Below are positions 1,730 to 18,501 of a stretch of 50,489 nucleotides of DNA, one piece after another (within the stretch, counting starts at the first letter, position 1; each line of letters opens with the position of its first letter). The translations under genes and the position numbers were made by a program. Origin of the DNA: Spirochaetota bacterium (GTDB lineage Bacteria > Spirochaetota > JAGLSM01 > JAKPMW01); assembly GCA_036795535.1 (NCBI GenBank), contig DAIREN010000004.1:1-50489 (forward strand), written 5' to 3'. The notes beneath the pieces were generated by a model that was not told the DNA's origin, searched no databases, and was given only the letters and a program-made list of their open reading frames with translations.

Positions 1730-3505
1730 TTACCAACTCCCGATGCGGGGCAAGCCCTCGGGCGTTCCAAGCGTGCCGGTCTCAATCACATACTGGACCA
1801 GCGCATCCGCAGTCGTCATCCCGGCAGAAACCGGGCCGCTTTCAAACGAAAAACTCGTTGTACTGGCCAGATAGGTGCTCAATGCCACCTTGTGTGGCCC
1901 AGGTCCAAGCACCGTACCCGAATAATCCGTCAATCGATATGGGGAGTACGTCTTGTTGATCTTGATTCCGGATACCTGCATATCTGAGCGGGTCGCACAG
2001 AAGTCTTGCAACTGCGCAAGCGTCATCTGATAGGTCACGAGTTCGTTCCCGAAGGGATCAAGCTCAAAGATCTGTTTGCGCGAGAGTGGTCCGGCCGGAA
2101 TCGAGCTGACCCGGATTCCACCATTGTTTTGAAATGCAGCGACAGCCCCTGTTACATGCCGCTGTCCATCCGTCATAAAGCTCCCGAGTGCAGACTGTCC
2201 CGAGAGCGTGACCGAAAGCGTCGCTATCTGGGCGTCCATAAAAGGATTTGACATGTACCCGTCCACAAGTGTCCGGACAGCGCTGTCCTCGCCGGCAATC
2301 CCGGAAACGGACACCAAGCTGCTGGATTTTTCGGTCACCTGCCCATTGACAAAGCGCAGGCGGACAAGGCCAACATAGGACAGCTTGGTCCCTGTCTGCG
2401 CAATCAATGGCGTCCCGTTGGAGCCGGCCCCTCCTTCAATCACGGAGTGCGAATGTCCACCCAGGATCACGTCCAGCCAGGAGCAACTTGAAGCCAGGCT
2501 GTTGTCGACACTGGCCCCGATATGGGTCAACGCGATCACGGCCCGGTTTTGCCTGGGCAGGCTCGCATACCCGGAAGCCACTGTCACCGGATCCGAAAAG
2601 GTCAATCCAACAACCTTGTCCGGATGGGTTGAAGGGATCCCCTGCGAGTTCCTCTCGGTCAGACCCAAAAAGACGAGCTCCATCCCGCCCGGAAAATTCG
2701 TCGTAAAGGTTGCGACCGGCTGCTGCAAGACCCCGCCGCTGACCGTGATATTGGCCGAGATCCAGCGCATGGGCGTCTGGCTCATCCGCGCGTTCAGCTC
2801 GGCCTGCCCGTAATCGAATTCGTGATTCCCGATCGCACTCAACCGGAAGCCTGACTGATACATGACATCGATCATGGGATATCCCGGTGGGGTGTACTGG
2901 TCCACATAGGGATTCCCCGAAAATCCATCGCCGGCCGACACGACCATCACGTTGGCATTGGTCGCCTGATACTGCTTGACCAGCCAGGCGATCTTCGGGT
3001 ACCCGTCCAGCGAACCGTGCATGTCGTTGACATGGAAGATAAAGACCACCCCGTTGGCCGGCCCGGTGGAGCTTGACGAGGATGAAACCGACAGTGAGCT
3101 GGAAGATGCCGACGAAACAGGCTGAGAACTTGATGAAGATGAAGCCGGTTGCGAGCTGGAGGGGGTCGACGAAACAGGTTGAACACTTGATGAAGACGAA
3201 GCCGGTTGCGAACTGGAGTATGTCGGGACTGAAACAGACTGCACACTCGAAGAGACCGGACTGGAGCAGACCGAGGAACTCGAAACGGGCGAGGATATCG
3301 AGGAAAAAGACGGCTGACTGGAGGACACAGAATGCGATGCCGACGCGCTGCTCGATATCAGACCTGGAAGGCTGGATCCTGAAGACAGCGCACTCTCCGA
3401 GGACGATTGGCCAAAGCCCGGGCCGATAGCATCATCGGAACAGGAGACAACGCTTCCGGCGAGGGCGAGACCAAATGCAAAAACAATGACAGATTTCTTC
3501 AACAA
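1730..3505 (-). CDS. lipoprotein bifunctional metallophosphatase/5'-nucleotidase (UshA-like) with a long poly-Ser tether
   Basis: Motifs HVNDMHG, GDGFSGN, GNHEFD and GGHSH, plus a C-terminal 5'-nucleotidase domain. Lipobox LAGSVVSC followed by SDD. About 130 aa of Ser-rich linker. The track start 3538 is TTG. I prefer TTG 3505, which has AAGGAG 10 nt upstream and gives MLKKSVIVFAFGLALAGSVVSC. The true start lies somewhere in 3505-3538. Confidence 0.8.
   Translation of the reverse strand: MLKKSVIVFAFGLALAGSVVSCSDDAIGPGFGQSSSESALSSGSSLPGLISSSASASHSVSSSQPSFSSISSPVSSSSVCSSPVSSSVQSVSVPTYSSSQPASSSSSVQPVSSTPSSSQPASSSSSSQPVSSASSSSLSVSSSSSSTGPANGVVFIFHVNDMHGSLDGYPKIAWLVKQYQATNANVMVVSAGDGFSGNPYVDQYTPPGYPMIDVMYQSGFRLSAIGNHEFDYGQAELNARMSQTPMRWISANITVSGGVLQQPVATFTTNFPGGMELVFLGLTERNSQGIPSTHPDKVVGLTFSDPVTVASGYASLPRQNRAVIALTHIGASVDNSLASSCSWLDVILGGHSHSVIEGGAGSNGTPLIAQTGTKLSYVGLVRLRFVNGQVTEKSSSLVSVSGIAGEDSAVRTLVDGYMSNPFMDAQIATLSVTLSGQSALGSFMTDGQRHVTGAVAAFQNNGGIRVSSIPAGPLSRKQIFELDPFGNELVTYQMTLAQLQDFCATRSDMQVSGIKINKTYSPYRLTDYSGTVLGPGPHKVALSTYLASTTSFSFESGPVSAGMTTADALVQYVIETGTLGTPEGLPRIGSW
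3110..3223. repeat. 2 x 57-bp tandem repeat (about 86% identical) inside the Ser-rich tether of the 5'-nucleotidase, with a degenerate third copy starting at 3224
   Basis: Units 3110-3166 and 3167-3223 aligned by hand with 8 mismatches in 57. They encode SSSQPASSSSSVQPVSSTP / SSSQPASSSSSSQPVSSAS. Confidence 0.8.
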
Positions 3506-3565
3506 AATAAATTTTCTCCTTACAGGCACATGCCTCAACGCTGGATTAATACTACTCCAATTTTC

Positions 3566-4594: not shown

Positions 4595-4729
4595 GCCAAC
4601 CTCCAGTGACTCGTCACGATTGATGCACTATCCCGTACTCCCGACTTTCAAGCTGAGACAACACGGGAATCCAATACCATGAATCTACCCTCTCGCACTG
4701 CGGGTGGCCCGATTTCCTCAATAAACCTG

Positions 4730-4765
4730 AAAAAAAGAACCCCCGTGACGGGAGTTCTTTTTTTT
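4730..4765 (-). terminator. rho-independent (bidirectional-type) terminator after the ExeM-like nuclease gene
   Basis: A7 (4730-4736), a 9-bp stem with one mismatch (agaaccccc / gggagttct, loop gtgac), then T8 (4758-4765). On the reverse strand the hairpin is followed by T7, just downstream of the stop at 4779. Confidence 0.7.
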
Positions 4766-4778
4766 GGCACAGAACGGA

Positions 4779-6395
4779 TTACAGCGTGATCTTGATCCTG
4801 ACAGCATAGTGATCGGTCGGGTTGCTCGAAGCGTTTCCGGAACCAATCCGCTTGGCTGAGCCGGCAACATATTTTGTCATCAGGGCTGGAGATATGACAA
4901 TATGGTCAAGTGTCAGGCCACTTGGAAAATTGAAAGTCGTTGTATTGGGATAAATGGCTGTTCGTCCAAACGAGGTAAAATCATTGGAGGCATCGCCATC
5001 ATCCTTGAGCTCAAGCATCGTTACAGTATTGCCTACTGTCCAGTCGCCGCTGTTCATTGTATTCATGTCCCCAAGAAGGACAATGTAGTCAGTTGCCAGA
5101 TTATGGTTGGCTCGCAGGTAATTGGCCAAAGCCTGCGCCTGTTCTACCCTCAGTTCCTGGGCCGAAGACTCCGTACCCGACTTGAGATGGCACCCGTAAA
5201 ACCAGACAGCATTCCCGCTGGCAAATGTGACTTTATACCGGTAAATCGTTCTGGGGCCCGGCGGATCAAGAATCTCGCTGACATCGGAAAGAGAATAGCG
5301 ACTAAAGGCACCAATACTGTTGTAATTATCACTCATTGAAGAGAACGAGTGATAATTCATTGCCCAGCCGGTTGTCGTCAGCGCTGTAGCAAAACTGGCC
5401 TCATCTCCATCATTGTTTTCAACCTCGCATAAATTGATAACATCCGCCTGGTTCGTTTTGACAATGGTTGCTATCGTACTATATGTTCCACCACTGATCT
5501 CGCCACCCTTGTCGAACTTCTCGACGTTATAGGTCATGATGGTATAGGTGGCAACAGCACCGGATGTCACGCTCGAAGCACTGAATGCCGACGAGACAGT
5601 CGAAATCGACGAAGCAGCCGACGAGCTTGTCGAGACACTCGTCGCAGATCCCGTATACAACATGACCTGCAGTGTTCCATTATAGTTCCCGACCGGCCCA
5701 CGCATGGTGTATGTTCCGGCAGTGATAGACGAACCCGACTCGTTCCGGTACTGGATTCCGCCAATCGTGACATTGCTCGAATCGCCCAGCGATGACAGGA
5801 GTATCACTGGACTGACACTCCATGCCTTGCCCTCATCGGCCGCTGACGGGACACCGGAACCTCTCACGACCGGGTTACCCGAACTGACCACACTGAATCC
5901 TGTGTAGGCTGTAACCTCCTTGAGCTGGTTATACATCTTCCCCTTGGTCGCGGTAAAACTGACGAGATCCCCGACTCCAGGCTGATCAACCGCCGTCGTA
6001 TAGACCATGATCCCTGCCTCGCTGTCCTGGATCCAGAACGCGCCGGCCGACTTGACCGCATGCACAATACCTGTCACCGTATACGAAAATGAAATTTCGG
6101 TAGAACTGGTGATAGCGGCACGAACAGTAGCGATATTGCCGCTGAACGATGAAACGCTGGCTGCGGAGGAAACAGCCGGAGCTGAAGAGGAAGAGGAAGA
6201 GACAGACCCGGAAGAATTCGCGGAAGCCGACGAGTCTCCCGCAGAAGACTGCGCCATGGAAGACAGCAAAACCGCACTGCTGCTCGAGCCGTCCGGCGGT
6301 GTCACAACCTCATCATCCGAACAAGCCGAAAAAGCGACAAAAAACTCACCACAATACCAACGCAAAAGACTCTTTTCATGGACGCTCCAATACAT
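4779..6395 (-). CDS. ExeM/NucH-like extracellular nuclease lipoprotein (OB-like domain + EEP domain); N-terminal signal peptide disrupted by a frame change
   Basis: Lipobox FVAFSAC followed by SDD, then a Ser-rich tether. OB-like region TVTGIVHAV..AFWIQD..GDLVSFTATKGKMYNQLKE. EEP motifs NLCEVEN, LLGDMNT and TDHYAV. ATG 6395 has no SD. The SD-preceded ATG at 6379 is in another frame (see finding). Confidence 0.7.
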   Translation of the reverse strand: MYWSVHEKSLLRWYCGEFFVAFSACSDDEVVTPPDGSSSSAVLLSSMAQSSAGDSSASANSSGSVSSSSSSAPAVSSAASVSSFSGNIATVRAAITSSTEISFSYTVTGIVHAVKSAGAFWIQDSEAGIMVYTTAVDQPGVGDLVSFTATKGKMYNQLKEVTAYTGFSVVSSGNPVVRGSGVPSAADEGKAWSVSPVILLSSLGDSSNVTIGGIQYRNESGSSITAGTYTMRGPVGNYNGTLQVMLYTGSATSVSTSSSAASSISTVSSAFSASSVTSGAVATYTIMTYNVEKFDKGGEISGGTYSTIATIVKTNQADVINLCEVENNDGDEASFATALTTTGWAMNYHSFSSMSDNYNSIGAFSRYSLSDVSEILDPPGPRTIYRYKVTFASGNAVWFYGCHLKSGTESSAQELRVEQAQALANYLRANHNLATDYIVLLGDMNTMNSGDWTVGNTVTMLELKDDGDASNDFTSFGRTAIYPNTTTFNFPSGLTLDHIVISPALMTKYVAGSAKRIGSGNASSNPTDHYAVRIKITL

Positions 6396-9401: not shown

Positions 9402-9722
9402 TCACTCCCGGGATTCCAGCATGGCCGATAACACATCGCGGACGGCACCGGCGGGGATCCCGCCATCCGGGGTATGCACCATGTACACCCGGCAACACTC
9501 CGCCCGCTCCCGGGACGGAAGCGGGAGACCCGCCGCATTCGGGCTTCCGGCGACCCAGGACTCTCGACGCCCGAACCTCCGGGTAATCCAGAAGACGGCC
9601 TGAGGATGGTCTTGCAGGTACCGCTCCGCGACCCTGGCCAGATCCAGGTCGGTAATCACCCTTCCGTCACCCGTTCGCGCCAATCCGGGAATGGCCTGAG
9701 GCTGTTCCCCATCATTCATCAT
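9402..9722 (-). CDS. hypothetical 106-aa protein translationally coupled to hydG
   Basis: The start ATG overlaps the hydG stop as ATGA (9722-9719). I recognise no motif. Coding status rests on the coupling and ORF length alone. Confidence 0.4.
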   Translation of the reverse strand: MMNDGEQPQAIPGLARTGDGRVITDLDLARVAERYLQDHPQAVFWITRRFGRRESWVAGSPNAAGLPLPSRERAECCRVYMVHTPDGGIPAGAVRDVLSAMLESRE

Positions 9723-11176
9723 ATGTAGAGATCCCGTTCACCATTCCGGATCCTGGCGAGAAGCTCGCGGGTATGGCGCTGCAGTTCCGGGGGGGTGATC
9801 CCGTCCAGTTCCCGTTCCACAAGCGCTGCCCCGACCGAACGTGTTTCCGGTGATGCGTAATCGAGAAGGTATTCCATGAAGGTGAGCACCGCATTCGGCC
9901 GGCACATATGCTGGATATGTCCCTTCTTGGCGATACACATGAACTGGCGGCCGGTGCGCCCCAAACGATAGTCGGCCGTGCAAAACGACGTGATCCGCCC
10001 GCGTGAGGCCAGCCAGCGGATTCCCTCATCCAGCGTCCGTGTATCGGACAGGACAAACTGTTGCCGAGCATGGTCTTCACGGGCCTGACTGTAGGCACCC
10101 ACCCCGATATTCGAACCGAAATCAAGTTGGGTGACACCCTGATCCAGGAGCCGTTCACGGACTGCGGCCGGCTCGCGACAGGTCAGGATCATCCCGGTAT
10201 AGGGAACCATCAGGCGAATGATCGCCACGATCCGGATAAAGGTTTCATCATCGATCTTCCACGCCGAGTTGTCGATCCATGGGGTATTGACGGCCGGTTC
10301 TATCCGAGGGAAAGAAATCGTGTGCGGCCCGACACCCCCGAACCTGTTTTCGAGATCGATCGTATGAGCCAAAAGCCCGAGGATCTCGAAGCGCCAGTCT
10401 GAAACCCCGAAGAGTGCCCCCATCCCGACATCATCGGCCCCGGCCTCGAGGGACCGGTGCAGGGCATAGAGCCGCCAGCGATAATTGGCCTTCAGACCGG
10501 ACGGGTGGATGTTGGCATAGGTCTTCCGGTCATAGGTCTCCTGGAACACCTGATACGTCCCAATCCCGACATCACGCAGAACCCGCAGTGAATCGACCGA
10601 GAGCGGCGCGGCATTCACATTGACACGGCGGATCTCTCCGTTCCCGGACTTGACACTGTAGGCAACCTTGATGGTTTGCGCAATATATTCGTAGTCGGAT
10701 TGCGGATGCTCCCCGTAGACCATGATCAGGCGTTTATGACCGGCCTCAACCAGCGCCTTGACCTCGGCCCGAATCTCCTCGTCGGTCAGTCGTTTTCTGG
10801 TGATCGCGCCGTTTTCGGTCCGATACCCGCAGTACTGGCAGTTGTTGACACAGAGATTGCTCACATACAACGGCGCAAAAGTGACGATCCGGTTTCCATA
10901 CACCGAGTTCTTGATCTCTCCGGCTGCCTTGAAAATCTCGTCCCAGATCCCGTGCTCCTTGGGAATGGCAACGAGTTGGGCCGCCTCATCAAGATCGAGA
11001 CGGGCCAGCGAACGGGCCTTGGCGATGATCTCGCGCACACGGCCTTCATCAAACCGGGTCTCTCCGATCAGCCTCGTAAAAAGATCGTCATCGACAAAAT
11101 CCCGGCCATTGACGAGATAGCGCTCGATCTCGTCCTCACGAACCACCTGATCCATCCACTCACGAACACCTGTCAT
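9719..11176 (-). CDS. hydG: radical SAM [FeFe]-hydrogenase maturase HydG-like (ThiH/HydG family)
   Basis: CVNNCQYC (CX3CX2C) radical SAM motif. ThiH/HydG-type core. A HydG-specific C-terminal extension ...SFCTADYRLGRTGRQFMCIAKKGHIQHMCRPNA. Adjacent to a TM1266-type regulator gene. ATG 11176 with GGGGGAG upstream. Confidence 0.8.
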   Translation of the reverse strand: MTGVREWMDQVVREDEIERYLVNGRDFVDDDLFTRLIGETRFDEGRVREIIAKARSLARLDLDEAAQLVAIPKEHGIWDEIFKAAGEIKNSVYGNRIVTFAPLYVSNLCVNNCQYCGYRTENGAITRKRLTDEEIRAEVKALVEAGHKRLIMVYGEHPQSDYEYIAQTIKVAYSVKSGNGEIRRVNVNAAPLSVDSLRVLRDVGIGTYQVFQETYDRKTYANIHPSGLKANYRWRLYALHRSLEAGADDVGMGALFGVSDWRFEILGLLAHTIDLENRFGGVGPHTISFPRIEPAVNTPWIDNSAWKIDDETFIRIVAIIRLMVPYTGMILTCREPAAVRERLLDQGVTQLDFGSNIGVGAYSQAREDHARQQFVLSDTRTLDEGIRWLASRGRITSFCTADYRLGRTGRQFMCIAKKGHIQHMCRPNAVLTFMEYLLDYASPETRSVGAALVERELDGITPPELQRHTRELLARIRNGERDLYI

Positions 11177-11244
11177 GTCATTCTCCCCCGTCCAAGGCTC
11201 CGGAATTTGTGAGACACGGCCGCAAGCTCTCTACCCAAAAACCC

Positions 11245-11487
11245 TCAAGCCTCTGGCTCGAACGTGACCCGTGAACTCGTCCCCGGCAACTTTCCGATCC
11301 GGCCTGACAGCACGTTGACGGCATCCAGATCTGCATCCAGAACCAGCACGATCACCGCAAGATCGCGGTCAACAAAGGGCAGACCAAGACGTCCGGCAAT
11401 GGAGCCACGAAATCGGGCAATCTCGGCATTGACCCGGGCACCATTTTGCCCGGGATCACGGATTATAATGGAAAGTGTTGCCAGCAT
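11245..11487 (-). CDS. TM1266-family putative iron-only hydrogenase system regulator (small ACT/NikR-C-like protein)
   Basis: 80-aa product MLATLSIIIRDPGQNGARVNAEIARFRGSIAGRLGLPFVDRDLAVIVLVLDADLDAVNVLSGRIGKLPG... matches the pattern I recall for the family usually found beside hydG/hydE. The internal ATG 11487 was chosen over the 11613 extension. Confidence 0.6.
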   Translation of the reverse strand: MLATLSIIIRDPGQNGARVNAEIARFRGSIAGRLGLPFVDRDLAVIVLVLDADLDAVNVLSGRIGKLPGTSSRVTFEPEA

Positions 11488-11613
11488 CACACGCACCCCG
11501 GGAAGAGAAAGGCATCCTCTCTCTTCAGGACTGTTTTTTGGCGCACGACGGCATGGAGTGCACACCGCAATGCATGTCTTAAGTATACACAATTTTCCGG
11601 CCTGAATCCTCAC

Positions 11614-11632
11614 CCCCGCGTTGCATCATTGA
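11614..11632. repeat. copy 1 of an exact 19-nt intergenic repeat ccccgcgttgcatcattga
   Basis: Identical 19-mer at 50434-50452 in the same orientation, with non-matching flanking bases. It lies between the hydG-regulator start (11487, -) and the GT2 gene (+), and overlaps the -35 of the promoter candidate at 11629. Confidence 0.9.
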
Positions 11633-11657
11633 CAGATTAATTGGAAAAGTCTAGACT
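11629..11657 (+). promoter_or_regulatory. sigma70-like promoter candidate for the glycosylation operon
   Basis: TTGACA (11629-11634), 17-nt spacer, TAGACT (11652-11657), about 42 nt upstream of GTG 11699. Confidence 0.45.
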
Positions 11658-11698: not shown

Positions 11699-12664
11699 GT
11701 GATTTCTCTCCACACATCCATCATCATCCCCTGCTACAACGAAGAGCAGGTCATTGCCGAAACGTACCGGCGCGTCAAAGCCGTCATGAAAGAATTCAAA
11801 AAGTACGAGATCATCTTCATTGATGACGGAAGCCGTGACCAGACACGGACCATCCTCCGCAATCTCGCCCGGGCCGACAAAACGGTCCGCGTCCTGATGT
11901 TCTCCCGGAATTTCGGGCACCAGCCCGCTGTCACGGCCGGCATCCGCCACGCCTCCGGGGATGTCGCCATCATCATTGATGCCGACCTGCAGGACCCGCC
12001 GGAACTCTTCCCCGAGATGATCCGCATCCACCAGGAGCAGGGGGCCAATGTCGTCTTCGGCCATCGCACGAAGCGCAAGGGGGAGTCCTTTTTCAAGAAA
12101 ATCACGGCCAAACTTTTCTATCGCTCCCTCAACAGACTCTCGGAGGTCCCCCTTCCTCTGGATACGGGCGACTTCCGCCTGATCGATCGCAAGGTGATGG
12201 ACGCATTTTGCCAATTCGGAGAGAAAAACAAGTACATCCGCGGGATCATCAGCTGGCTCGGATTTGCACAGGCCCCGATCCACTATGTCCGCGAGGAACG
12301 CTTCGCCGGAGAGACCAAATACCCCTTCCGCAAGATGATCAAGTTTGCCACAACAGGTCTGCTCTACTTCACGAAAAAGCCGCTCAAACTGGCCATGCAC
12401 CTCGGCCTGTTCTGTGTCCTGGTCGGCTTGGGAATGGCCGCCTGGGTCATCTGGCTCCACCTCTCCGGAGACGCAAGTGTGGCCAAGGGTTGGCCATCCC
12501 AGCTCATCACCATCATCTTTTTCGGAGGCGTGCAGCTTTTAACAATTGGCGTCCTCGGCGGATACATCGGAAGTATCTTTGACGAGGTGAAAAACAGACC
12601 AGAGTACATCATCGGAGATGCCCTCAACTTCTCCGAAACCAAAACGAAAACAAAGAACAGGTAA
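11699..12664 (+). CDS. GT2 polyprenyl-phosphate glycosyltransferase (GtrB / Ppm1 / ArnC-like)
   Basis: IIIPCYNEE, FIDDGSRD, DADLQDPPE (DXD), then two C-terminal TM helices. GTG 11699 has GAGGA 5 nt upstream. The track start 11678 is TTG. Confidence 0.85.
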   Translation: MISLHTSIIIPCYNEEQVIAETYRRVKAVMKEFKKYEIIFIDDGSRDQTRTILRNLARADKTVRVLMFSRNFGHQPAVTAGIRHASGDVAIIIDADLQDPPELFPEMIRIHQEQGANVVFGHRTKRKGESFFKKITAKLFYRSLNRLSEVPLPLDTGDFRLIDRKVMDAFCQFGEKNKYIRGIISWLGFAQAPIHYVREERFAGETKYPFRKMIKFATTGLLYFTKKPLKLAMHLGLFCVLVGLGMAAWVIWLHLSGDASVAKGWPSQLITIIFFGGVQLLTIGVLGGYIGSIFDEVKNRPEYIIGDALNFSETKTKTKNR

Positions 12665-12671
12665 CGTCATC

Positions 12672-14192
12672 ATGCCATTCATGTTTACGCTCGCTGCAAA
12701 GCTACGGGCCATGGACAAGACCAACCGGTTTTCCGCTGCCCTGGTTGCCGTCTTCGTCCTGGCATCGGCCACGTTCATGATCAATTATCACCGGCCCTCG
12801 GGGATGTTTTGGGACGAGAATTATTATCTGACCGCGGTCCAGAAATACACGGACGGATATGTGTTTTTTGAGTCCCACCCGCCCCTGGGAAAACTCTTCA
12901 TGGCGCTCGGAGAAAATATCTTCAGCCGGAACGACCACCTGGACCGAAGCGCGTTTACCCTCACGGAAAAAATCGACTCGGTCCCCAAAGGCTATTCCTT
13001 TCTCGGAGTGCGGTTCTTCCCGGTCCTCTTCGCTGTCTTCGGAGCCTTGGTATTCTTCCTGATCCTTCACCGCCTCATCAAAAAACCCTTTTACGCCTTT
13101 GTCTTTTCAGGGTTTTACGTTTTTGAAAACGCGTTCATTCTCCATTCCCGGGGAGCCATGCTGGACAGCACCCAGCTCTTTTTCATCTTCTCTGCGATTG
13201 CCCTCTTCATTCGCTACACCGACGGGAAGGCCCCGGTCAAACTCCGCCACTATTTCGCGATGGCGTCCGTGGTCGGCTTGGCCATCATGGTCAAGGTCAA
13301 TGCCGCTTTTCTTCTGCTCCTCTTTCCGGTCCTGTTTCTCTATGAACACCGGGCTGCCATCAAGGAACGCTGGTTCCGGCAACGCAAGGCCTTTTGGCTG
13401 GATCTCCTCAAAAAATCGGCCGTTTCCGCGGGCGCAATCGCGCTGGTCACCTTTGTCGTTTTCATGATCCACTTCTCGCTTGGCGATCGCATTCCGGGCG
13501 GGCAAACCCAGAAGATCTCGCCTGAATACCGGTCAATCATCGCCCGCGGCGAAACCGGAAACCTGTTCAATTTCCCGATCATGTTCAAAGACTACCTGAA
13601 CTATATGTCGAGTTATCACGAGAATGTCCCCAAGTTCCGCAAGTACGATGAGGGTGACAACGGCAGCCGTCCGATCACGTGGCCATTCGGTGAAAAAAGC
13701 ATCCGCTACCGCTGGAACAAATCCGGTGGACAGGTCCAGTATCTCTACCTGCAGGGCAATCCTGTCATCTGGATCTCCGGGCTGATCGGTCTCGCCCTCG
13801 CCTTCGCCCTCATCTCGGGTCGTTTTGTCTTCAAACACAGGAGCGATGACCCCGAAAAGAACAGGCTCTTCTGGTACATCGCCTTCTTCTTCGGGCTCTA
13901 CGCGATCTACATGGCGATGATCATGCGAATTGACCGGGTGATGTATCTCTATCACTACTTCATTCCCCTGTTTTTCTCGCTCTTCCTTGCGGCACTCGTC
14001 TTTGCGTACATCTTCCGCGAGAAAATCGAGCAGAACAACCGTGTCCTGATCACGGCCTGCGGAATCTTCTTCATCGAAATCGTTGCGGTCTTCGTCTTCT
14101 TCATGCCGCTCACGTACTACTTCCCGCTTACAACCCGGGAATTCCTCCAGCGGACCTGGCTGGATATCTGGGAGTTGAAATATGTCCAGTAA
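12672..14192 (+). CDS. PMT-family (GT39-like, GT-C fold) lipid-carrier-dependent glycosyltransferase
   Basis: Polytopic membrane protein. Loop-1 FWDENYYL acidic motif. HPPLGKL. Periplasmic loop ...GSRPITWPFGEKSIRYRW...YLYLQGNPVIW, typical of bacterial dolichyl/polyprenyl-phosphate-mannose protein mannosyltransferases. ATG 12672 is 7 nt after the GT2 stop. Confidence 0.8.
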   Translation: MPFMFTLAAKLRAMDKTNRFSAALVAVFVLASATFMINYHRPSGMFWDENYYLTAVQKYTDGYVFFESHPPLGKLFMALGENIFSRNDHLDRSAFTLTEKIDSVPKGYSFLGVRFFPVLFAVFGALVFFLILHRLIKKPFYAFVFSGFYVFENAFILHSRGAMLDSTQLFFIFSAIALFIRYTDGKAPVKLRHYFAMASVVGLAIMVKVNAAFLLLLFPVLFLYEHRAAIKERWFRQRKAFWLDLLKKSAVSAGAIALVTFVVFMIHFSLGDRIPGGQTQKISPEYRSIIARGETGNLFNFPIMFKDYLNYMSSYHENVPKFRKYDEGDNGSRPITWPFGEKSIRYRWNKSGGQVQYLYLQGNPVIWISGLIGLALAFALISGRFVFKHRSDDPEKNRLFWYIAFFFGLYAIYMAMIMRIDRVMYLYHYFIPLFFSLFLAALVFAYIFREKIEQNNRVLITACGIFFIEIVAVFVFFMPLTYYFPLTTREFLQRTWLDIWELKYVQ

Positions 14193-14820
14193 CACAAAGA
14201 AATCCGAACAGACCGGTTTGGTCACGTTCCTGAAAATGGTCAACCCTCGCGATCCGGCCTGGATCTTTTTGGGGCTCACCTTGCTCGTCGGTATGGCGAT
14301 TGTCATCTCGATCGTCCCGCCAGGATTCTTGAGCTCGTCCGGGAAATTGATGAACGTCACCATCGAACATCAAAAGAAAGACATCGCCCACATCGACCAG
14401 ACCAGAGAAACCTTTGCGACCGATACCTTCTATATCGATACCATCGATTTCCCGGCCGGCAATACCCTCCGGCACGAAAAGCTCGGGGATTATGATTTTT
14501 CGAGAAACTTCTTCGTGCGGATCGAAGGCCAGATGGTTGTCAACACCCCCGGGGAGTACCGGATGATCGTTGCCTCCGATGACGGGTTCCGCCTCGAGAT
14601 CGATGGGCAGCGGATCAGCCAGCATACAAACGACCGCCCAATGGCGGAGACCGTCACCAATGTCCGGCTCGAAAAGGGAAAGCACTCCTTTGTGGTTTCT
14701 TGGTTCCAGGGCTTTGGCCAGCTCGGGCTCCGTGCCTGGTACGAGGGCACCTGCGGACGCAAGCTCTTCGGAGAATCCACGCCCTGCATCACCTTCGTCT
14801 CGACAGCAACAAAGGATTGA
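14182..14820 (+). CDS. single-pass membrane protein with an extracytoplasmic PA14 domain
   Basis: ATG 14182 with GGAG 7 nt upstream, overlapping the PMT gene end by 11 nt. TM helix AWIFLGLTLLVGMAIVISIV. PA14-like core FFVRIEGQMVVNTPGEYRMIVASDDGFRLEIDGQRI...GKHSFVVSWFQGFGQ. Confidence 0.7.
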   Translation: MSSNTKKSEQTGLVTFLKMVNPRDPAWIFLGLTLLVGMAIVISIVPPGFLSSSGKLMNVTIEHQKKDIAHIDQTRETFATDTFYIDTIDFPAGNTLRHEKLGDYDFSRNFFVRIEGQMVVNTPGEYRMIVASDDGFRLEIDGQRISQHTNDRPMAETVTNVRLEKGKHSFVVSWFQGFGQLGLRAWYEGTCGRKLFGESTPCITFVSTATKD

Positions 14821-14822
14821 GG

Positions 14823-15242
14823 ATGGGCCTCCTTGGTGGGAATTGTCGCAGCGAGATCGGAAAGCTCATCCGCTTCGGGGCCGTGGGTGTCCTGAACACG
14901 GCCATCGGTCTTGGCACAATCTATCTCTTACAGATCGGACTTGATCAGGATTATCGCTTCGCCAGTGCCGTCGGGTACACACTCGGGATCATCAACAGCT
15001 TTGTCCTCAACCGGATCTGGACGTTCAAAAGCAGCGATTCCCGGGTAGCCCGACAGGGTGCCCGCTTCCTCCTCTCGGCTGGTGCCTGCTGGCTGGTCCA
15101 GCTGGGGTTTCTGGTCGTAATGGTTGAAGGCCTGCACATCCACGAAAACGCGGCACAGCCCATCGGGATGGTGATCTATACCGGCTTGAACTATCTCGCC
15201 AACAGGCTCTTTGTCTTCAGGGGACCGGACCGGCAAGCGTAA
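14823..15242 (+). CDS. GtrA-family membrane protein (putative lipid-linked sugar flippase)
   Basis: ATG 14823 is 2 nt after the PA14 stop. 139 aa with 4 predicted TM helices. IRFGAVGVLNTAIGLGTIYLL ... NRIWTF ... NYLANRLFVF, typical of GtrA. Confidence 0.8.
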   Translation: MGLLGGNCRSEIGKLIRFGAVGVLNTAIGLGTIYLLQIGLDQDYRFASAVGYTLGIINSFVLNRIWTFKSSDSRVARQGARFLLSAGACWLVQLGFLVVMVEGLHIHENAAQPIGMVIYTGLNYLANRLFVFRGPDRQA

Positions 15243-15267
15243 GGCAAGTGTGTATCCCCGAGACATA

Positions 15268-15300
15268 ACGAGACCCGGCAAACTTGCCGGGTCTCGTTTT
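15268..15300 (+). terminator. rho-independent terminator after the glycosylation operon
   Basis: acgagacccggcaa (15268-15281) pairs with ttgccgggtctcgt (15284-15297), followed by TTT(T)CT. Located between convergent genes. Confidence 0.6.
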
Positions 15301-15326
15301 CTCAAAAGCAATTGTGCTGCGGACAA

Positions 15327-15863
15327 TTATTTTTTGACAGCCACCAGCCTGAAAACCTGGTTCTCGGGTTTGACTGTCAGCGGCTCGAACTGGACCAGCG
15401 GGCCCCCTTTTTCCGTACTGACGCCAAACACGGTCAACATCTTCCCGCTATGGAGAGCCTGCATCGTGTAGCCGCCATCCCCCTTTTTCAAGATCCAGAT
15501 CTGGTTGCTCGCGACACTTCCATTGTCATTCCACTGGACAACAGCGGCGTTGTTGTTGGTCGAATTCCCCTGGACATCGAGGCAGAGTTTGCTCAGTTCG
15601 GAGACAATCTTCCACTGTCCATCCTGACCTGATTTGATGAACTTCCAAACCTGATTTGAACTCGGCTTGTCCTTGCTGTTGATCGTCCACTGGACAATCT
15701 GCTTCCCCGGCTCACTGCTCGCAGCAGGAACATCCAGCGCCATTCCGCTCGCCTTGGAAACAATCATGAAACGGCCATCCGCGACAGGATCCGCACTCCC
15801 CGCACCGCAAGAGACCAAAAAAACCACCAACACACAGAGTCCCGCCAATACCAGCTTGTTCAT
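15327..15863 (-). CDS. lipoprotein with a ricin B-type (beta-trefoil) lectin domain
   Basis: ATG 15863 preceded by GGAGGAG. Lipobox FLVSCGAG. Three QxW-like repeats (QVWKF, QIWIL, QVFRL) and QW motifs (VQWT, VQWN). Confidence 0.75.
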   Translation of the reverse strand: MNKLVLAGLCVLVVFLVSCGAGSADPVADGRFMIVSKASGMALDVPAASSEPGKQIVQWTINSKDKPSSNQVWKFIKSGQDGQWKIVSELSKLCLDVQGNSTNNNAAVVQWNDNGSVASNQIWILKKGDGGYTMQALHSGKMLTVFGVSTEKGGPLVQFEPLTVKPENQVFRLVAVKK

Positions 15864-15972: not shown

Positions 15973-18501
15973 TCAACTCCGCCGACCTTTATCCTGCTCG
16001 ACAGCCAGCCTGTCCCGCTCCACCATCTTCTCGACGATCCTGAGCATCTCGTCATCGGCCGCGATCCGTCTTGCACGATCCAGCAGTTCTTCGGCATCCG
16101 CAAACCGCTTGAAGAGACGGTAACAATCGGCGACGATGATCAGACATTTGAGATGGTTAGGGTTGAGCAAGAGCAATCTCTCGCCATAGTCGACGGTGAT
16201 CCGGATATGGTACTTGAACTCGTCTTTCCCTTTATTACTGTCGTAGATGTCCTTGGCAATCCGTCGGGCCGCATTCACGATCCCGAAGAGGAATCCCTCA
16301 TTCAGCGGGAAGATCCTGAGAGCATACTGGTACACCCTGATCTCCTCCGCCGTATCACCCGTCTCGTGCAGGAGATTTGCCAAACGCTCGACCACCTCGA
16401 CATCCGGATAGAGGTACATGGTTTTCCTGAGGAGCTGGAGAGATCTGGCCTGATCCTTTTCCGCAAGGGCCTTGAACGCACTCGAGCGGACCGCCTCGTA
16501 GTCCGGAGGAACGAGAAGCGGGGCCTTCTTCCACTCGATCCGGATCAGGGTAAAGTCATCCGTCAGCTCCGCGCTCCTCTCGACGGCTGAAACAACACCC
16601 TCAAGGTTCCCGTTTGATTCCTCGATACAGCGCAGGAACCGGGTCTCATCCTCGTTGATGATGCGCTGCCCGGACTCCTCGTCGTGTCCGATCAAAACGT
16701 CATCGCGACCGTCAGAGCCGAGGTAGATCACATCCCCCTGTTCGAGCTGCTGCATGTGAATGACAACCTTGTTCTCGAAACCGACAGTACCGATTTTGCG
16801 GAGTGTCAGCTCTTCCTCGGTAAAGGCGGCATTTCCGCCCCGATACAAAACCGTCCAGGGGTGCTCCGCATTCAGGTAATACATGGCTCCCGTCTCTTCA
16901 TCAAGCAACCCGATCACAGCGGAGATCAGCATGCTCCCGTCGAAAGAAACAAAGACCCGGTTCAATTCTTCATAGATTTCGGTCAGCCATGCCTCCGGCG
17001 TCTTGTTCGACGCAAAGAGCGGCGTACGGTTGATATACGCGTTGAACACGACCCCCATCACAAGCGCACCGCCGGCGCCCTGCAAGGACTTGCCCATGGC
17101 ATCCCCGTTGGCAAACGCCAGATAACGCTTGTCCATCAGGACAATCTCCCGGGCGATACAGACATCTCCACCGATCTCACCATTGCGCTTTTTGAACGTA
17201 AACTTCTTTTTCTGGCTGATGTGGAAATCGACCGAGACAGTCTCGCTGCGGACTTCCTTGACCAGCAAGGGATTGATCAGCAGGGAGGTCAGGAAGTAAT
17301 CGCCGTCCTGCTGCACCTTGAGGGCATTCACTTCCTCAAAGGCCTGCTGCAACTCCCTCGTCCGCTGGGCGACCATGTCTTCGAGGTGCTCGGTGTATTC
17401 CTTGATATTGGCCGTCATCATGTTGATCGTGTTCGCCACCATCGTAAATTCGTCACCGGTGGCCAGGCTGATCTTGACATCGAAGTCCTTGTTCATGATT
17501 TTGGCAAGATTGCTGTCGATGACACCCAGCGGATGGAGCACGATCCGGTTGATCAGGATCAGAAGCGAACCAAGGATAAGCATGAGGCTGATCACGAGGA
17601 GGAGGATAAAAGGCACGAAGATCGAATACAGAAGGGCGTTGATGTCCATCAACACCAGGATGTACCAGTTGGTTGAACGCAGATTGATCAGCGAGAACGA
17701 ACCCATATGGCTCTTCCCGTCATAATCGATGAACTCGCTGATGATGGATTGGTCCTTGGCTTCATCCAGCCGCTTCATGATCCCGCGAATCCGGTTCCCG
17801 TCCTCACCCGTCAGATAGAAAATCGTCCGGTTGTCGATGTATTCTTCCTTGATGTGCGCTTTGACATGCCCTCTGTCGTTGAAGAGAATAACATAGGCAC
17901 CCTTGGACACATTGGAAACCATCTGCTTGATCATCTTGGAAACATCAAGACCGGTCCCGGTCACACCCAGGAGCCTGTCCTCATCCCAGACCGGGACATA
18001 GACCCAGAGTTTGGTCGTCAAAAGCTGCGGGTTATAGGAAATATCGATCCCCAGCTCACGCTTTTTGGATGACGTCCAATACCAGAGGTCAGCCGCGATG
18101 TCCCTGCTCAGGGTGTTGAGAAAATTCCCGTTGACGTAATAGCTCTTGGATGTGTCGACCGCGGCAAACGTATCCGTATCCTTGAGGAGGATCCGCAGTT
18201 TCCGGAAATTCTCCATGGCCATGTCCTTGAGGCCACGGTCATCCTCGTTTTTCATCCAGTTCCGCAGAATCGGGTTTTCGGACATGTATTGCGAGGTGTC
18301 GATGTTCCTGTCAAAGGTCTGGCTGAATTCGCTCAGTTTTGCCTTGAGGATTTCTTGGGTATACGCTTTCCCGACATCCTCAAAAAGGTCTCCGGCAATC
18401 TGAAGGTTGACCAAGGTCCCAACAAGACCGACTACTATGAAAATCAGTGCCGGATAGAGCGTCAACTTGACCCTCAAACTCTTGGCTTTATGCAGATTCA
18501 T
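15973..18501 (-). CDS. membrane sensor: extracytoplasmic (Cache-like) domain - HAMP - SpoIIE/PP2C phosphatase - C-terminal TPR-like region
   Basis: ATG 18501 with GAGGAG 8 nt upstream. Two TM segments flank about 250 aa. HAMP-like LHPLGVIDSNLAKIMNKDFDVKISLATGDEFTMVANTINMM. PP2C/SpoIIE-like GGDVCIA...GDAMGKSLQGA...LGSDGRDD. Helical-repeat tail. Confidence 0.8.
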   Translation of the reverse strand: MNLHKAKSLRVKLTLYPALIFIVVGLVGTLVNLQIAGDLFEDVGKAYTQEILKAKLSEFSQTFDRNIDTSQYMSENPILRNWMKNEDDRGLKDMAMENFRKLRILLKDTDTFAAVDTSKSYYVNGNFLNTLSRDIAADLWYWTSSKKRELGIDISYNPQLLTTKLWVYVPVWDEDRLLGVTGTGLDVSKMIKQMVSNVSKGAYVILFNDRGHVKAHIKEEYIDNRTIFYLTGEDGNRIRGIMKRLDEAKDQSIISEFIDYDGKSHMGSFSLINLRSTNWYILVLMDINALLYSIFVPFILLLVISLMLILGSLLILINRIVLHPLGVIDSNLAKIMNKDFDVKISLATGDEFTMVANTINMMTANIKEYTEHLEDMVAQRTRELQQAFEEVNALKVQQDGDYFLTSLLINPLLVKEVRSETVSVDFHISQKKKFTFKKRNGEIGGDVCIAREIVLMDKRYLAFANGDAMGKSLQGAGGALVMGVVFNAYINRTPLFASNKTPEAWLTEIYEELNRVFVSFDGSMLISAVIGLLDEETGAMYYLNAEHPWTVLYRGGNAAFTEEELTLRKIGTVGFENKVVIHMQQLEQGDVIYLGSDGRDDVLIGHDEESGQRIINEDETRFLRCIEESNGNLEGVVSAVERSAELTDDFTLIRIEWKKAPLLVPPDYEAVRSSAFKALAEKDQARSLQLLRKTMYLYPDVEVVERLANLLHETGDTAEEIRVYQYALRIFPLNEGFLFGIVNAARRIAKDIYDSNKGKDEFKYHIRITVDYGERLLLLNPNHLKCLIIVADCYRLFKRFADAEELLDRARRIAADDEMLRIVEKMVERDRLAVEQDKGRRS

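Follow-up and report, generated by a model that had tools for sequence, protein, structure and literature searches.

A conserved PA14 lectin-like partner of a PMT-family glycosyltransferase in a four-gene Spirochaetota operon

A PMT-family glycosyltransferase and a small membrane protein with a PA14 domain are encoded side by side in a four-gene operon of a Spirochaetota bacterium, and the same two genes adjoin each other in several phyla. This dedicated PA14-PMT partnership is the main new result of the analysis. The window, which is the whole 50,489-nucleotide stretch of DNA that was analysed, also encodes a GtrB-like GT2 synthase and a GtrA-family protein in the same operon. We consider it slightly favoured, with a probability of roughly 0.55, that the operon specifies an O-glycosylation system which works outside the cytoplasm, depends on a lipid carrier and modifies Ser-rich linkers and tethers, and in which PA14 would serve as an in-trans lectin module.

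The operon and its surroundings

The four genes form a unit, 11699-15242 (+), of tightly packed ORFs in the order GT2-PMT-PA14-GtrA. The features of the region are as follows.

11629..11657, +, candidate sigma-70-type promoter TTGACA-N17-TAGACT; 10/12 matching positions, ~40 nt upstream of the GT2 start
11699..12664, +, predicted GT2 polyprenyl-phosphate sugar synthase, GtrB/PgfS/CsbB type, 321 aa; PF00535, E 7.6e-39
12672..14192, +, PMT-family (GT39-like) GT-C glycosyltransferase, 506 aa, no MIR domain; PF02366, E 2.7e-24 and PF16192, E 1.9e-26
14182..14820, +, single-pass membrane protein with a predicted periplasmic PA14 lectin-like domain, 212 aa; PF07691, E 2.9e-7
14823..15242, +, 4-TM protein of the GtrA family, 139 aa, a candidate to flip the lipid-linked sugar; PF04138, E 3.1e-29
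15260..15303, +, intrinsic terminator (hairpin and U-tract) at the operon end; 14-bp G+C-rich stem at 15267-15298, then UUUUCUC
15327..15863, -, Ricin-B (beta-trefoil) lectin lipoprotein, convergent neighbour; PF14200, E 9.6e-27

The reading frames in the sequence bear out the coordinates, strand and spacing given in the initial annotation, with a 7-nt gap between GT2 and PMT, an 11-nt overlap between PMT and PA14 and a 2-nt gap between PA14 and GtrA. Profile searches with PF00535, PF02366, PF07691 and PF04138 each matched the expected gene. The promoter-like site noted earlier is present, but because such sites occur in the region as often as expected by chance (2 found against 2.0 expected), the case for it lies wholly in its location in the sole intergenic gap. 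The terminator that had been placed after the operon is a strong hairpin (-32 kcal/mol, z = -6.1), which none of 200 shuffled sequences matched in folding, and it was missing from the output of a simple scan.

Relatives whose PA14 is as little as 44% identical still keep the gene order and differ in what lies upstream. The Campylobacterota carry the same four components in other orders, PA14-PMT-GtrA-GT2 and PMT-PA14-GtrA-GT2. The Ricin-B lipoprotein gene is kept beside the operon in the window's clade (L001-L005, L090-L092) and is absent from remoter relatives; it is possibly associated with the operon.

The PMT-family enzyme and its PA14 partner

By sequence motif and predicted fold, the GT-C enzyme is a true PMT relative, as proposed in the initial annotation, which had noted its WDENYY motif. 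In addition to the PF02366 and PF16192 matches, the sole PDB entries matched by its sequence were Pmt1 (1.5e-15) and Pmt4. In the alignment, WDENYY falls on FDEVHF, the Asp-Glu motif in yeast Pmt1, and D48 and E49 are invariant among 16 diverse homologues. The AlphaFold model (pLDDT 84, pTM 0.90) matched Pmt4, Pmt1 and Pmt2 at TM 0.75-0.80, with Pmt4 the best at TM 0.80. An ArnT-like or arabinan-type GT-C, which the initial annotation had named as the competing assignment, does not fit, with TM scores of 0.31 to ArnT and about 0.45 to Emb. Residues 317-558 of Pmt1, which form the MIR region, have no counterpart in the window PMT.

The small protein encoded next to it was correctly described as a single-pass protein with an external PA14 domain. 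It scores 30.9 bits against PF07691, above the gathering score of 24, and its model (pLDDT 81) contains a TM helix at 25-44 followed by a beta-sandwich at 57-206. The best fold matches were sugar-bound MpPA14, RTX-adhesin PA14 and the Cea1A, Flo and Epa domains, with Foldseek E-values of 7e-9 to 1e-6 to sugar-binding PA14 domains. In the alignment with MpPA14, the SDDGF motif of the family falls on the DcisD Ca2+/sugar motif, and a QG pair falls on L11 Gln156-Gly157. The DcisD residues D133-D134 are invariant in 60 PA14-family sequences, and conservation reaches at least 90% at Q176 and G177. Sequence and model thus identify the protein as a probable lectin with a predicted Ca2+/sugar site.

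A small PA14-family gene directly adjoins the PMT gene in 63 of 80 genome loci from several phyla (63 of the 71 outside Patescibacteria). These pairs occur in Spirochaetota, Brevinematales, Campylobacterota, Gammaproteobacteria and Bdellovibrionales, so the co-occurrence anticipated for related genomes extends far past close relatives. No more than 19 nt separate the two genes in 62 of the 63 loci. Their stop and start codons usually overlap, and 45 of the loci have overlapping genes. For the reciprocal test, PA14-family genes were collected independently from metagenomes, and all 31 of those with sufficient flanking sequence adjoined a PMT gene. The PA14 module is also naturally fused to another GT-C (L107:2-1534) and to LtaS/OpgB-like sulfatase-fold membrane transferases (L016, L107). 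By this conserved adjacency and these fusions, the PA14 protein is a dedicated PMT partner; a physical complex between the two is putative. Patescibacteria PMT loci have no PA14 gene, yet they do have polyserine neighbours, and PA14 is therefore not needed by every member of the PMT family. A literature search turned up no paper connecting PA14 with PMT or GT-C enzymes, in line with the earlier statement that such a component lies outside the known Gtr and Pmt systems.

Sugar donor, candidate acceptors and proposed mechanism

The GT2 protein carries DAD as its DXD motif, together with a TM pair at the C-terminus. Its gene starts with GTG, has GAGGA 5 nt upstream and, at 321 aa, equals the gene length called in relatives. 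The best NCBIfam match was PgfS (2.2e-87; 293 bits, below the cut-off of 500), ahead of ArnC (7e-49). Against the PDB, GtrB sll0501 scored 3.3e-75, ArnC about 5e-43 and archaeal DPMS 2.8e-18. These comparisons indicate a GtrB/PgfS-like enzyme and not a Dol-P-Man or Ppm1-type synthase. Of the earlier GtrB/Ppm1/ArnC label, the polyprenyl-phosphate sugar synthase therefore stands, with GtrB as the best fit, and the Ppm1 part falls away. Mannosylation is accordingly not to be assumed, and the transferred sugar need not be mannose. The fourth protein was rightly assigned to the GtrA family, whose accepted role is to help lipid-linked sugar across the membrane; relatives and Campylobacterota also encode it together with PMT, PA14 and GT2.

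Three lipoproteins with Ser-rich tethers are the likeliest acceptors in the window, a role that we infer.

1730..3538, -, candidate acceptor, lipoprotein 5'-nucleotidase/metallophosphoesterase whose lipobox Cys is followed by a long Ser-rich tether; PF00149 and PF02872, maximum 70% Ser per 20 aa
3566..4594, -, candidate acceptor, endonuclease/exonuclease/phosphatase-family lipoprotein with a Ser-rich tether; PF03372, maximum 55% Ser per 20 aa
4779..6395, -, candidate acceptor, endonuclease/exonuclease/phosphatase-family lipoprotein with a Ser-rich tether and linker; PF03372, maximum 60% Ser per 20 aa

The description of these tethers as near-pure poly-Ser was overstated; they are Ser-rich, and in their richest 20-aa windows Ser makes up 55-70%. 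Their genes lie outside the operon at a distance of 5-10 kb, which counts against a protein O-glycosylation reading. Across the genome loci, polyserine tracts occur in 28 of 650 PMT neighbour genes (4.3%), spread over 21 of the 80 loci. All 28 lie no more than four genes from the core, compared with none of 118 remoter genes (Fisher p = 0.003), and the directly adjacent position showed no enrichment over positions 2-4. Signal-peptide-like N-termini were found in 24 of the 28, and those checked with Pfam include secreted enzymes (LPMO10, GH18, GH16, amylases and pectate lyase). The result was repeated in PA14-selected metagenome loci (9/250). This suggests that exported polyserine-linker proteins are unusually frequent beside PMT genes, at about 4% of neighbours against an unmatched background of 1.1%, a literature value for one genome. 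Native Ser-rich-linker enzymes of Cellvibrio japonicus are heavily hexosylated, and Cel5B carries a hexose ladder with mannose as one of its sugars, in a study that did not identify the transferase (PMC10755729). This hexosylation and the clustering of polyserine-linker proteins beside PMT genes lend indirect support to the idea of Ser-rich acceptors. The PMT-PA14 pair was seen in Cellvibrio species other than C. japonicus.

In the mechanism that we propose, the GtrB-type GT2 would work at the cytoplasmic face and use a nucleotide sugar to charge undecaprenyl phosphate with a monosaccharide, as its homologues suggest, and GtrA would help to shift the lipid-linked sugar to the periplasmic face. 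The PMT-family GT-C would then pass the sugar to Ser (or Thr) hydroxyls of exported proteins, within their disordered, Ser-rich tethers and linkers. For this step the enzyme has the PMT fold and the catalytic Asp-Glu motif, and we infer the acceptor from family precedent and genomic association. PA14 would act as a dedicated subunit, docked to PMT by its TM helix, with a periplasmic Ca2+-dependent lectin site that would bind an already attached sugar or the acceptor region and thereby keep PMT on Ser-rich stretches. It would thus be an in-trans functional analogue of the eukaryotic PMT MIR domain and of the WW-like element of mycobacterial PMT. The MIR of Pmt4 binds an S/T-X-S/T motif (PMC12586580), and what makes up for the absence of MIR in bacterial PMTs has been posed as an open question (PMC12331936).

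Comparison with known systems and alternative readings

The eukaryotic PMTs (yeast Pmt1/Pmt2/Pmt4, human POMT1/2; GT39) have PF02366, PF16192, the loop-1 Asp-Glu motif and the predicted fold in common with the window PMT, and they act on S/T-rich disordered regions with the help of an extra lumenal module that recognises the acceptor or product (PMC12586580, PMC7759382). In contrast, the window PMT lacks the MIR beta-trefoil in loop EL4 and has a separate, adjacent single-pass PA14 protein instead. Its donor would come from a GtrB-type undecaprenyl-phosphate sugar synthase, whereas theirs comes from Dol-P-Man synthase. The actinobacterial Ppm1/Pmt system (M. tuberculosis Rv1002c) also has a bacterial PMT without MIR and glycosylates exported proteins extracytoplasmically from a polyprenyl-phosphate sugar (PMC12331936). 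However, its synthase is of a different type and its Pmt is not an orthologue (NF058602, 24 bits against a cut-off of 800). Mycobacterial Pmt chooses Pro-rich sites via an in-cis WW-like C-terminal element of EL4, whereas the window has a predicted lectin in trans and Ser-rich associated proteins.

Gtr-type systems (GtrA/GtrB/GtrC O-antigen glucosylation; CsbB/GtcA/YfhO) likewise bring together a GtrB-like GT2 (the Synechocystis GtrB match above), GtrA and a GT-C, with the same logic of making the lipid-linked sugar, flipping it and transferring it outside. The window differs in that its GT-C is PMT-family and not GtrC/YfhO/ArnT-like, in the fourth conserved component, PA14, and in an acceptor that is likely a protein. 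The streptococcal GtrB-PgtC2 and Pgf (PgfS/PgfM1/PgfE/PgfM2) systems, in which GtrB or PgfS works with GT-C enzymes, O-glycosylate S/T-rich disordered segments of lipoproteins and membrane proteins extracytoplasmically and shield them from proteolysis (PMC12041528). PgfS is the sub-cut-off best match of the window GT2, and Campylobacterota versions resemble these systems in carrying a second GT-C. Unlike the window type, the streptococcal GT-Cs are YfhO or PgfM types with no PA14 component, and the window-type carriers are Gram-negative. Adhesin PA14 domains (Marinomonas MpPA14, RTX/Lap adhesins, yeast Flo/Epa/Cea1) have the same fold and conserve the DcisD and L11 Gln-Gly Ca2+/sugar-diol residues. 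In contrast to these, the window type stands alone as a protein of about 190-210 aa with one N-terminal helix in the inner membrane, and is genetically tied to a glycosyltransferase, not part of a giant surface adhesin.

It is possible, although rather unlikely, that the acceptor is a glycan or glycolipid (LPS/LOS, periplasmic glucans, capsule or peptidoglycan) which the PA14 lectin recruits to the GT-C active site, on the model of classical Gtr-type O-antigen glucosylation or the CsbB/GtcA/YfhO teichoic-acid systems. Gtr-type three-component systems are classically glycan-directed (reviewed in PMC8035078, PMC11127046). The sugar-binding motif of the PA14 module is intact, and the module is fused to LtaS/OpgB-like sulfatase-fold transferases. 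Such transferases usually decorate glycans or lipids, and a sugar-binding PA14 together with these fusions fits a glycan acceptor as well as a protein acceptor. However, the GT-C is a clear PMT relative, and to our knowledge all characterised PMTs act on protein Ser/Thr. No conserved LPS, O-antigen or glucan biosynthesis genes were found around the PMT-PA14 pair, and the nearby enrichment of polyserine-linker proteins also argues for the protein O-glycosylation that we favour.

Canonical actinobacterial Ppm1/Pmt-type O-mannosylation, with PA14 sharing the operon but acting on its own as a periplasmic lectin or sensor, seems doubtful. The GT-C does belong to the PMT family, and mannose is among the C. 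japonicus Cel5B sugars, but the GT2 is GtrB/PgfS-like and not DPMS-like, the actinobacterial Pmt equivalog model falls far below its cut-off, and aminosugar and deoxysugar genes lie directly upstream in one relative (L008). An independent role for PA14 is at odds with its bidirectional adjacency to PMT, with start and stop codons that overlap, and with its fusion to transferases. The constant adjacency, together with a short SSS stretch just past the TM helix in the window's clade, would also fit a self-contained enzyme-substrate pair in which PA14 itself is the PMT acceptor. We regard this as highly improbable: the 60-sequence family has no conserved Ser/Thr-rich segment, its conserved positions are those of the lectin site and the beta-sandwich core, and the fusions of the module to enzymes fit a subunit instead.

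The four-gene operon and its two glycosyltransferases

The operon consists of four plus-strand open reading frames separated, as the initial annotation had described, by a 7-nt gap, an 11-nt overlap and a 2-nt gap. The GT2, PMT, PA14 and GtrA assignments that the annotation gave them all scored above the curated Pfam thresholds.

Genes of the operon and the Pfam matches of their products
11699-12664 (+): GT2 glycosyltransferase, 321 aa; PF00535, E 7.6e-39
12672-14192 (+): PMT-family GT-C transferase (PMT), 506 aa; PF02366, E 2.7e-24, 86.5 bits against a cut-off of 22.7; PF16192, E 1.9e-26, 93.3 bits against 32.4
14182-14820 (+): single-pass PA14 protein, 212 aa; PF07691, 30.9 bits against a gathering score of 24
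14823-15242 (+): GtrA-family small 4-TM protein, 139 aa, 2 nt downstream of the PA14 gene; PF04138, E 3.1e-29

The GT2 gene starts with GTG at 11699, with GAGGA 5 nt upstream, and this start yields a 321-aa protein matching the product called by gene callers in relatives. The promoter proposed for the operon, TTGACA-N17-TAGACT, is present at 11629-11657, but a consensus scan found such sites to be no commoner than in shuffled sequence, so it is the position of the candidate that recommends it. The proposed terminator was missed by a simple terminator scan and recovered by folding, as a 14-bp stem followed by UUUUCUC (-32 kcal/mol, z = -6.1). No Rfam family was detected anywhere in the window and therefore no riboswitch leader.

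The sole PDB sequence matches of the PMT were yeast Pmt1 (1.5e-15) and a fungal Pmt4. Its WDENYY motif aligned to the catalytic FDEVHF of Pmt1 in the first extracytoplasmic loop, and D48 and E49 were invariant among 16 homologues of 41-64% identity. The AlphaFold model of the PMT (pLDDT 84, pTM 0.90) was compared with known structures using Foldseek. It matched Pmt4 (9i5k) with an E of 2e-15 and a TM score of 0.80 and Pmt1/Pmt2 with TM scores of 0.75-0.76, compared to ~0.48 for oligosaccharyltransferases and 0.31 for ArnT. The PDB, motif and fold matches thus all point to PMT and away from the ArnT or arabinan-type transferase that had been raised as the alternative, and as judged by sequence and predicted fold the GT-C is a true PMT relative. 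It has PF02366, PF16192, the Asp-Glu motif and the fold in common with the eukaryotic PMTs (Pmt1/Pmt2/Pmt4). In contrast, the MIR β-trefoil in loop EL4 is theirs alone; Pfam found no MIR domain in the PMT, where residues 293-331 replace Pmt1 residues 317-558. The PMT is also not an orthologue of actinobacterial Pmt (NF058602), against which it scored only 24.2 bits relative to an equivalog cut-off of 800. Homologues of ~485-505 aa number in the hundreds and occur in many phyla. Some PMT homologues carry an N-terminal extension of ~250 aa (P0094, P0109, P0123, L042:5149-7434, L050 and L058); a fused PA14 module was ruled out there, as the PA14 HMM gave no match and Pfam found nothing.

The best PDB match of GT2 was the Synechocystis polyprenyl-phosphate glucosyltransferase GtrB (sll0501), at 3.3e-75 over residues 4-308 (full length), compared to ~5e-43 for ArnC and only 2.8e-18 for the archaeal Dol-P-Man synthase (DPMS). 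The sequence has a DAD motif (DXD) and two C-terminal hydrophobic helices, and its top NCBIfam model was streptococcal PgfS (293 bits, under the equivalog cut-off of 500). Because of the GtrB, PgfS and ArnC matches, GT2 is assigned from its sequence as a GtrB/PgfS/CsbB-type undecaprenyl-phosphate sugar synthase whose sugar is not readable from sequence. With respect to the mannose donor of PMT enzymes, which a Dol-P-Man or Ppm1-type synthase makes, GT2 is far nearer to GtrB, PgfS and ArnC than to DPMS, and aminosugar genes are present in one relative. In this relative (L008:1-4972), PMT-PA14 is directly preceded by genes for a dehydratase/epimerase, a DegT-type aminotransferase, two more epimerases/reductases and a short GT2, which suggests transfer of a modified amino or deoxy sugar in that organism. 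Given these dehydratase, aminotransferase and epimerase genes, the transferred sugar probably differs between lineages. A GtrB-like GT2, GtrA and a GT-C are found together as in Gtr-type three-component systems, with the GT-C belonging here to the PMT family. Streptococcal Pgf systems, in contrast, need a PgfS equivalog, PgfM-type GT-Cs and PgfE, whereas the operon has a sub-cut-off PgfS score, a PMT as its GT-C and no epimerase.

The PA14 partner of the PMT

Homologues of the PA14 protein with 44-73% identity, all in Spirochaetota-like metagenome bins, keep the arrangement GT2-PMT-PA14-GtrA, also in those cases where the genes upstream are different. A genome scan with the PMT alignment against one genome per species gave 80 loci, on which a PA14-family HMM was then run. 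A ~190-aa PA14-family gene directly adjoins the PMT gene in 63 of these loci. The carriers of the pair are Spirochaetota, Brevinematales, Campylobacterota, Gammaproteobacteria (Cellvibrio, Marinimicrobium, Marinagarivorans) and Bdellovibrionales. No PA14 neighbour was found in the nine Patescibacteria PMT loci, which have polyserine neighbours all the same. PMT precedes PA14 in 55 loci and follows it in 8. The coding regions overlap in 45/63 loci and are spaced by ≤19 nt in 62/63, a pattern typical of co-translated subunits. For the reciprocal test, PA14-family peptides were the sole seed of a metagenome scan, and genes with at least 1.5 kb on each side were counted. Each of the 31 small PA14 genes obtained has a PMT gene as its immediate same-strand neighbour.

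Word-index searches had suggested a tiny PA14 family (9 relatives with a protein query, 15 with a 60-sequence profile). This was overturned because the PMT-seeded genome scan, the metagenome scan and an exhaustive profile search all found many members. The profile search gave 353 cluster representatives at E ≤ 1e-30, and about half of the best 150 representatives are full-length single-domain proteins of 150-240 aa.

The four-component set recurs in Campylobacterota as PA14-PMT-GtrA-GT2 and PMT-PA14-GtrA-GT2. PA14 modules also occur as fusions within GtrA/GT2 clusters on Campylobacterota-type contigs. One is joined to a different polytopic GT-C (L107:2-1534, +; PA14 HMM E 4e-28) and others to multi-TM sulfatase-fold (LtaS/OpgB-like) transferases (L016:10633-12993, -; L107:1917-4265, +). 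Taken together, the pairing, the reciprocal adjacency, the four-gene recurrence and the fusions suggest that the PA14 module serves membrane transferases as an accessory domain on the extracytoplasmic side. Nothing on PA14 combined with PMT or GT-C enzymes was found in the literature searched. PA14 is a widely conserved, previously undescribed fourth component of a system that combines Gtr-type logic with a PMT-family transferase.

In Sulfurimonadaceae and Helicobacteraceae, PA14-PMT-GtrA-GT2 is followed by a polytopic protein of 600-650 aa (c3; L022:8714-10663, +, with homologues in L013, L014, L016 and L021) that has weak PMT/PMT_2 matches (3e-5) and is reminiscent of S. mutans PgfM1/PgfM2. 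It was considered as an acceptor and set aside, being more probably a second GT-C.

The model of the PA14 protein (pLDDT 81) has an N-terminal helix (25-44) followed by a β-sandwich (57-206). Its top structural matches were sugar-bound PA14 lectin domains, namely MpPA14, an RTX-adhesin PA14, Cea1A, Flo and Epa (best E 7e-9). In MpPA14, the DcisD motif Asp110/Asp111 and the L11 residues Gln156/Gly157 bind Ca2+ and the sugar diol (PMC8092209). Profile-to-PDB alignment placed the family SDDGF motif on this Asp-Asp and the family FQG motif on this Gln-Gly. Across 60 family members, D133 and D134 never vary, with conservation of at least 90% at Q176 and G177. The lectin-site (DcisD) motif is therefore conserved in the PA14 family, forming a predicted Ca2+/sugar site. 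One architectural variant of the small PA14 family, P0277 (375 aa), combines a TM helix with a PA14 domain to which four Sel1 repeats are appended.

Polyserine proteins near PMT loci

No one acceptor gene is consistently found next to the pair; apart from PMT, PA14 and GT2, the commonest neighbour family is present in only 12 of the 80 loci. Of 650 neighbour genes outside the core, 28 (4.3%) carry a polyserine stretch, defined as at least 55% Ser over 20 residues, and many of these tracts are 100% Ser. The 28 genes are spread over 21 of the 80 loci, and every one is at most four genes away from the core, with 0/118 farther out (Fisher p = 0.003). The immediately adjacent position showed no enrichment relative to positions 2 and beyond (p = 0.53), setting the scale at ≤4 genes. 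Polyserine proteins are thus associated with PMT loci, in some cases immediately beside the glycosylation genes, as in Kangiella (L028), Cellvibrio (L071, L072, L075, L076) and Spirochaetales (L019). In the PA14-selected metagenome loci the signal was replicated, with polyserine in 9 of 250 genes (3.6%). For the genome loci, the binomial p was 2e-9 relative to a background of ~1.1%, which is a literature figure for one genome and not a matched control. It derives from Saccharophagus degradans, in which polyserine linkers occur in 46 carbohydrate-active proteins (PMC2699552); we take its genome to comprise roughly 4000 genes.

Signal-peptide-like N-termini are present in 24 of the 28 polyserine neighbours and a lipobox in ~10. 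Ten were checked against Pfam. All were genuine proteins and eight had recognisable extracellular or carbohydrate-active domains.

Polyserine neighbours with recognisable domains
LPMO10-PKD-CBM5/12 protein
CBM5/12-GH18 protein
α-amylases
GH16 protein
pectate lyase with CBMs
choice-of-anchor lipoprotein

The window itself has Ser-rich segments in only 3 of ~42 genes. All three encode lipoproteins in which the lipobox cysteine is immediately followed by the Ser-rich segment, and they are the acceptors proposed in the initial annotation.

Ser-rich lipoproteins of the window
1730-6395 (-): 5'-nucleotidase/metallophosphoesterase and two EEP-family nucleases in a row, 5-10 kb from the operon

This trio resembles a surface-tethered cluster scavenging extracellular nucleic acids.

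Polyserine linkers abound in, and typify, the secreted carbohydrases of Cellvibrio, Saccharophagus and Teredinibacter; ever since they were first described, the literature has called their function unknown. Native C. japonicus Cel5B and Cel5D migrate ~15 kDa heavy. Cel5B is positive in glycoprotein staining, contains Man, Glc and Gal and gives a mass ladder with 162-Da steps from 71 to 75 kDa (PMC10755729). The Ser-rich linker of Cel5B gave no peptides and the responsible transferase was not named (PMC10755729). Streptococci use GtrB or PgfS plus GT-C enzymes to glycosylate, outside the cell, the S/T-rich disordered regions of their lipoproteins and membrane proteins, which protects these from proteolysis (PMC12041528). 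Nothing direct on O-glycosylation of polyserine linkers in bacteria was found in the literature searched.

Proposed mechanism, alternatives and neighbouring genes

The interpretation of the operon as an extracytoplasmic glycosylation machine is supported as far as sequence analysis reaches, and the underlying observation is confirmed. What the four proteins are and how they fold, the catalytic motif, the conservation of the lectin site, the conserved pairing and fusions and the association with polyserine proteins are firm, and the following mechanism is proposed on this footing. GT2 would make an undecaprenyl-phosphate monosaccharide, GtrA would assist its flipping, and the PMT would move the sugar onto Ser of disordered Ser-rich segments emerging in the periplasm. 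The PA14 protein may dock on the PMT via its TM helix, and its Ca2+ site may bind already-added sugars or the acceptor region, promoting dense modification of Ser runs. PA14 would then be the trans equivalent of the MIR domain and of the WW-like EL4 element. The MIR domain of Pmt4 binds the substrate S/T-X-S/T motif (PMC12586580), and work cited in PMC12331936 implicates MIR in processive displacement of the mannosylated substrate. In the mycobacterial PMT, the WW-like EL4 element confers a preference for Pro-rich sites. The full reading is that a large non-actinobacterial PMT subfamily has the small single-pass PA14 proteins as its obligate lectin subunits, and that enzyme and lectin jointly O-glycosylate exported proteins, on their polyserine linkers and lipoprotein tethers, in Spirochaetota, Campylobacterota, Cellvibrionaceae and other Gram-negative lineages. 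We hold it tentatively, with a probability of about 0.4.

It is possible that the acceptor is a glycan or glycolipid instead of a protein, since glycans are the classical targets of Gtr systems, the PA14 site is of the sugar-binding type and LtaS-like partners usually decorate glycans. However, the GT-C is a PMT, no conserved LPS or glucan genes lie nearby and PMT loci carry the polyserine signal. Ordinary actinobacterial-type mannosylation with PA14 as an unrelated passenger is contradicted by the GtrB-type synthase, by the failed actinobacterial Pmt equivalog test, by the PMT-PA14 adjacency that holds in both directions and by the existence of fusions. The PA14 protein is also unlikely to be itself the substrate of the PMT, because no S/T-rich segment is conserved in its family. 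Glycosylation of polyserine segments by the PMT and its PA14 lectin is the reading that we favour.

To our knowledge, work on PMT-type O-glycosylation in bacteria has been confined almost entirely to Actinobacteria. Our results point to a large, unstudied Gram-negative PMT subfamily that nearly always has its own membrane-anchored lectin. If the PMT-PA14 reading is true, it would identify the enzyme behind the heavy hexosylation of Cellvibrio carbohydrases and give polyserine linkers a biochemical rationale, and a trans PA14 lectin would perform the role that MIR has in eukaryotic PMTs. How bacterial PMTs compensate for the missing MIR is posed as an open question in a mycobacterial PMT study (PMC12331936). 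The link between the PMT-PA14 system and polyserine linkers is testable. As the pair occurs in cultured, tractable strains, MIR compensation, the purpose of polyserine and the identity of the hexosylating enzyme can all be addressed directly. On the practical side, linker glycosylation influences how stable and how protease-resistant industrial carbohydrases are, and enzymes expressed in E. coli lose it.

Three further features lie close to the operon.

Neighbours of the operon in the window
9719-11613 (-): HydG/ThiH-like radical SAM protein with a BATS domain, plus a small upstream ORF
15327-15863 (-): Ricin-B (β-trefoil) lectin lipoprotein, convergent to the operon
15973-18501 (-): dCache-HAMP-SpoIIE (PP2C phosphatase)-TPR membrane sensor, a conserved convergent neighbour

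The radical SAM gene and its small ORF, divergent to the operon, are syntenic with it in close relatives and probably unrelated to it; the small gene in the same position in L004 carries a TM1266-like Pfam domain. The Ricin-B lipoprotein keeps its position across the clade of the window (L001-L005, L090-L092), not in more distant relatives. [quoted passage not shown] The dCache-HAMP-SpoIIE-TPR sensor is also found beside the PMT-PA14 pair in a relative with a 48% identical PMT (L008, L009) and may be linked in regulation to the glycosylation genes.
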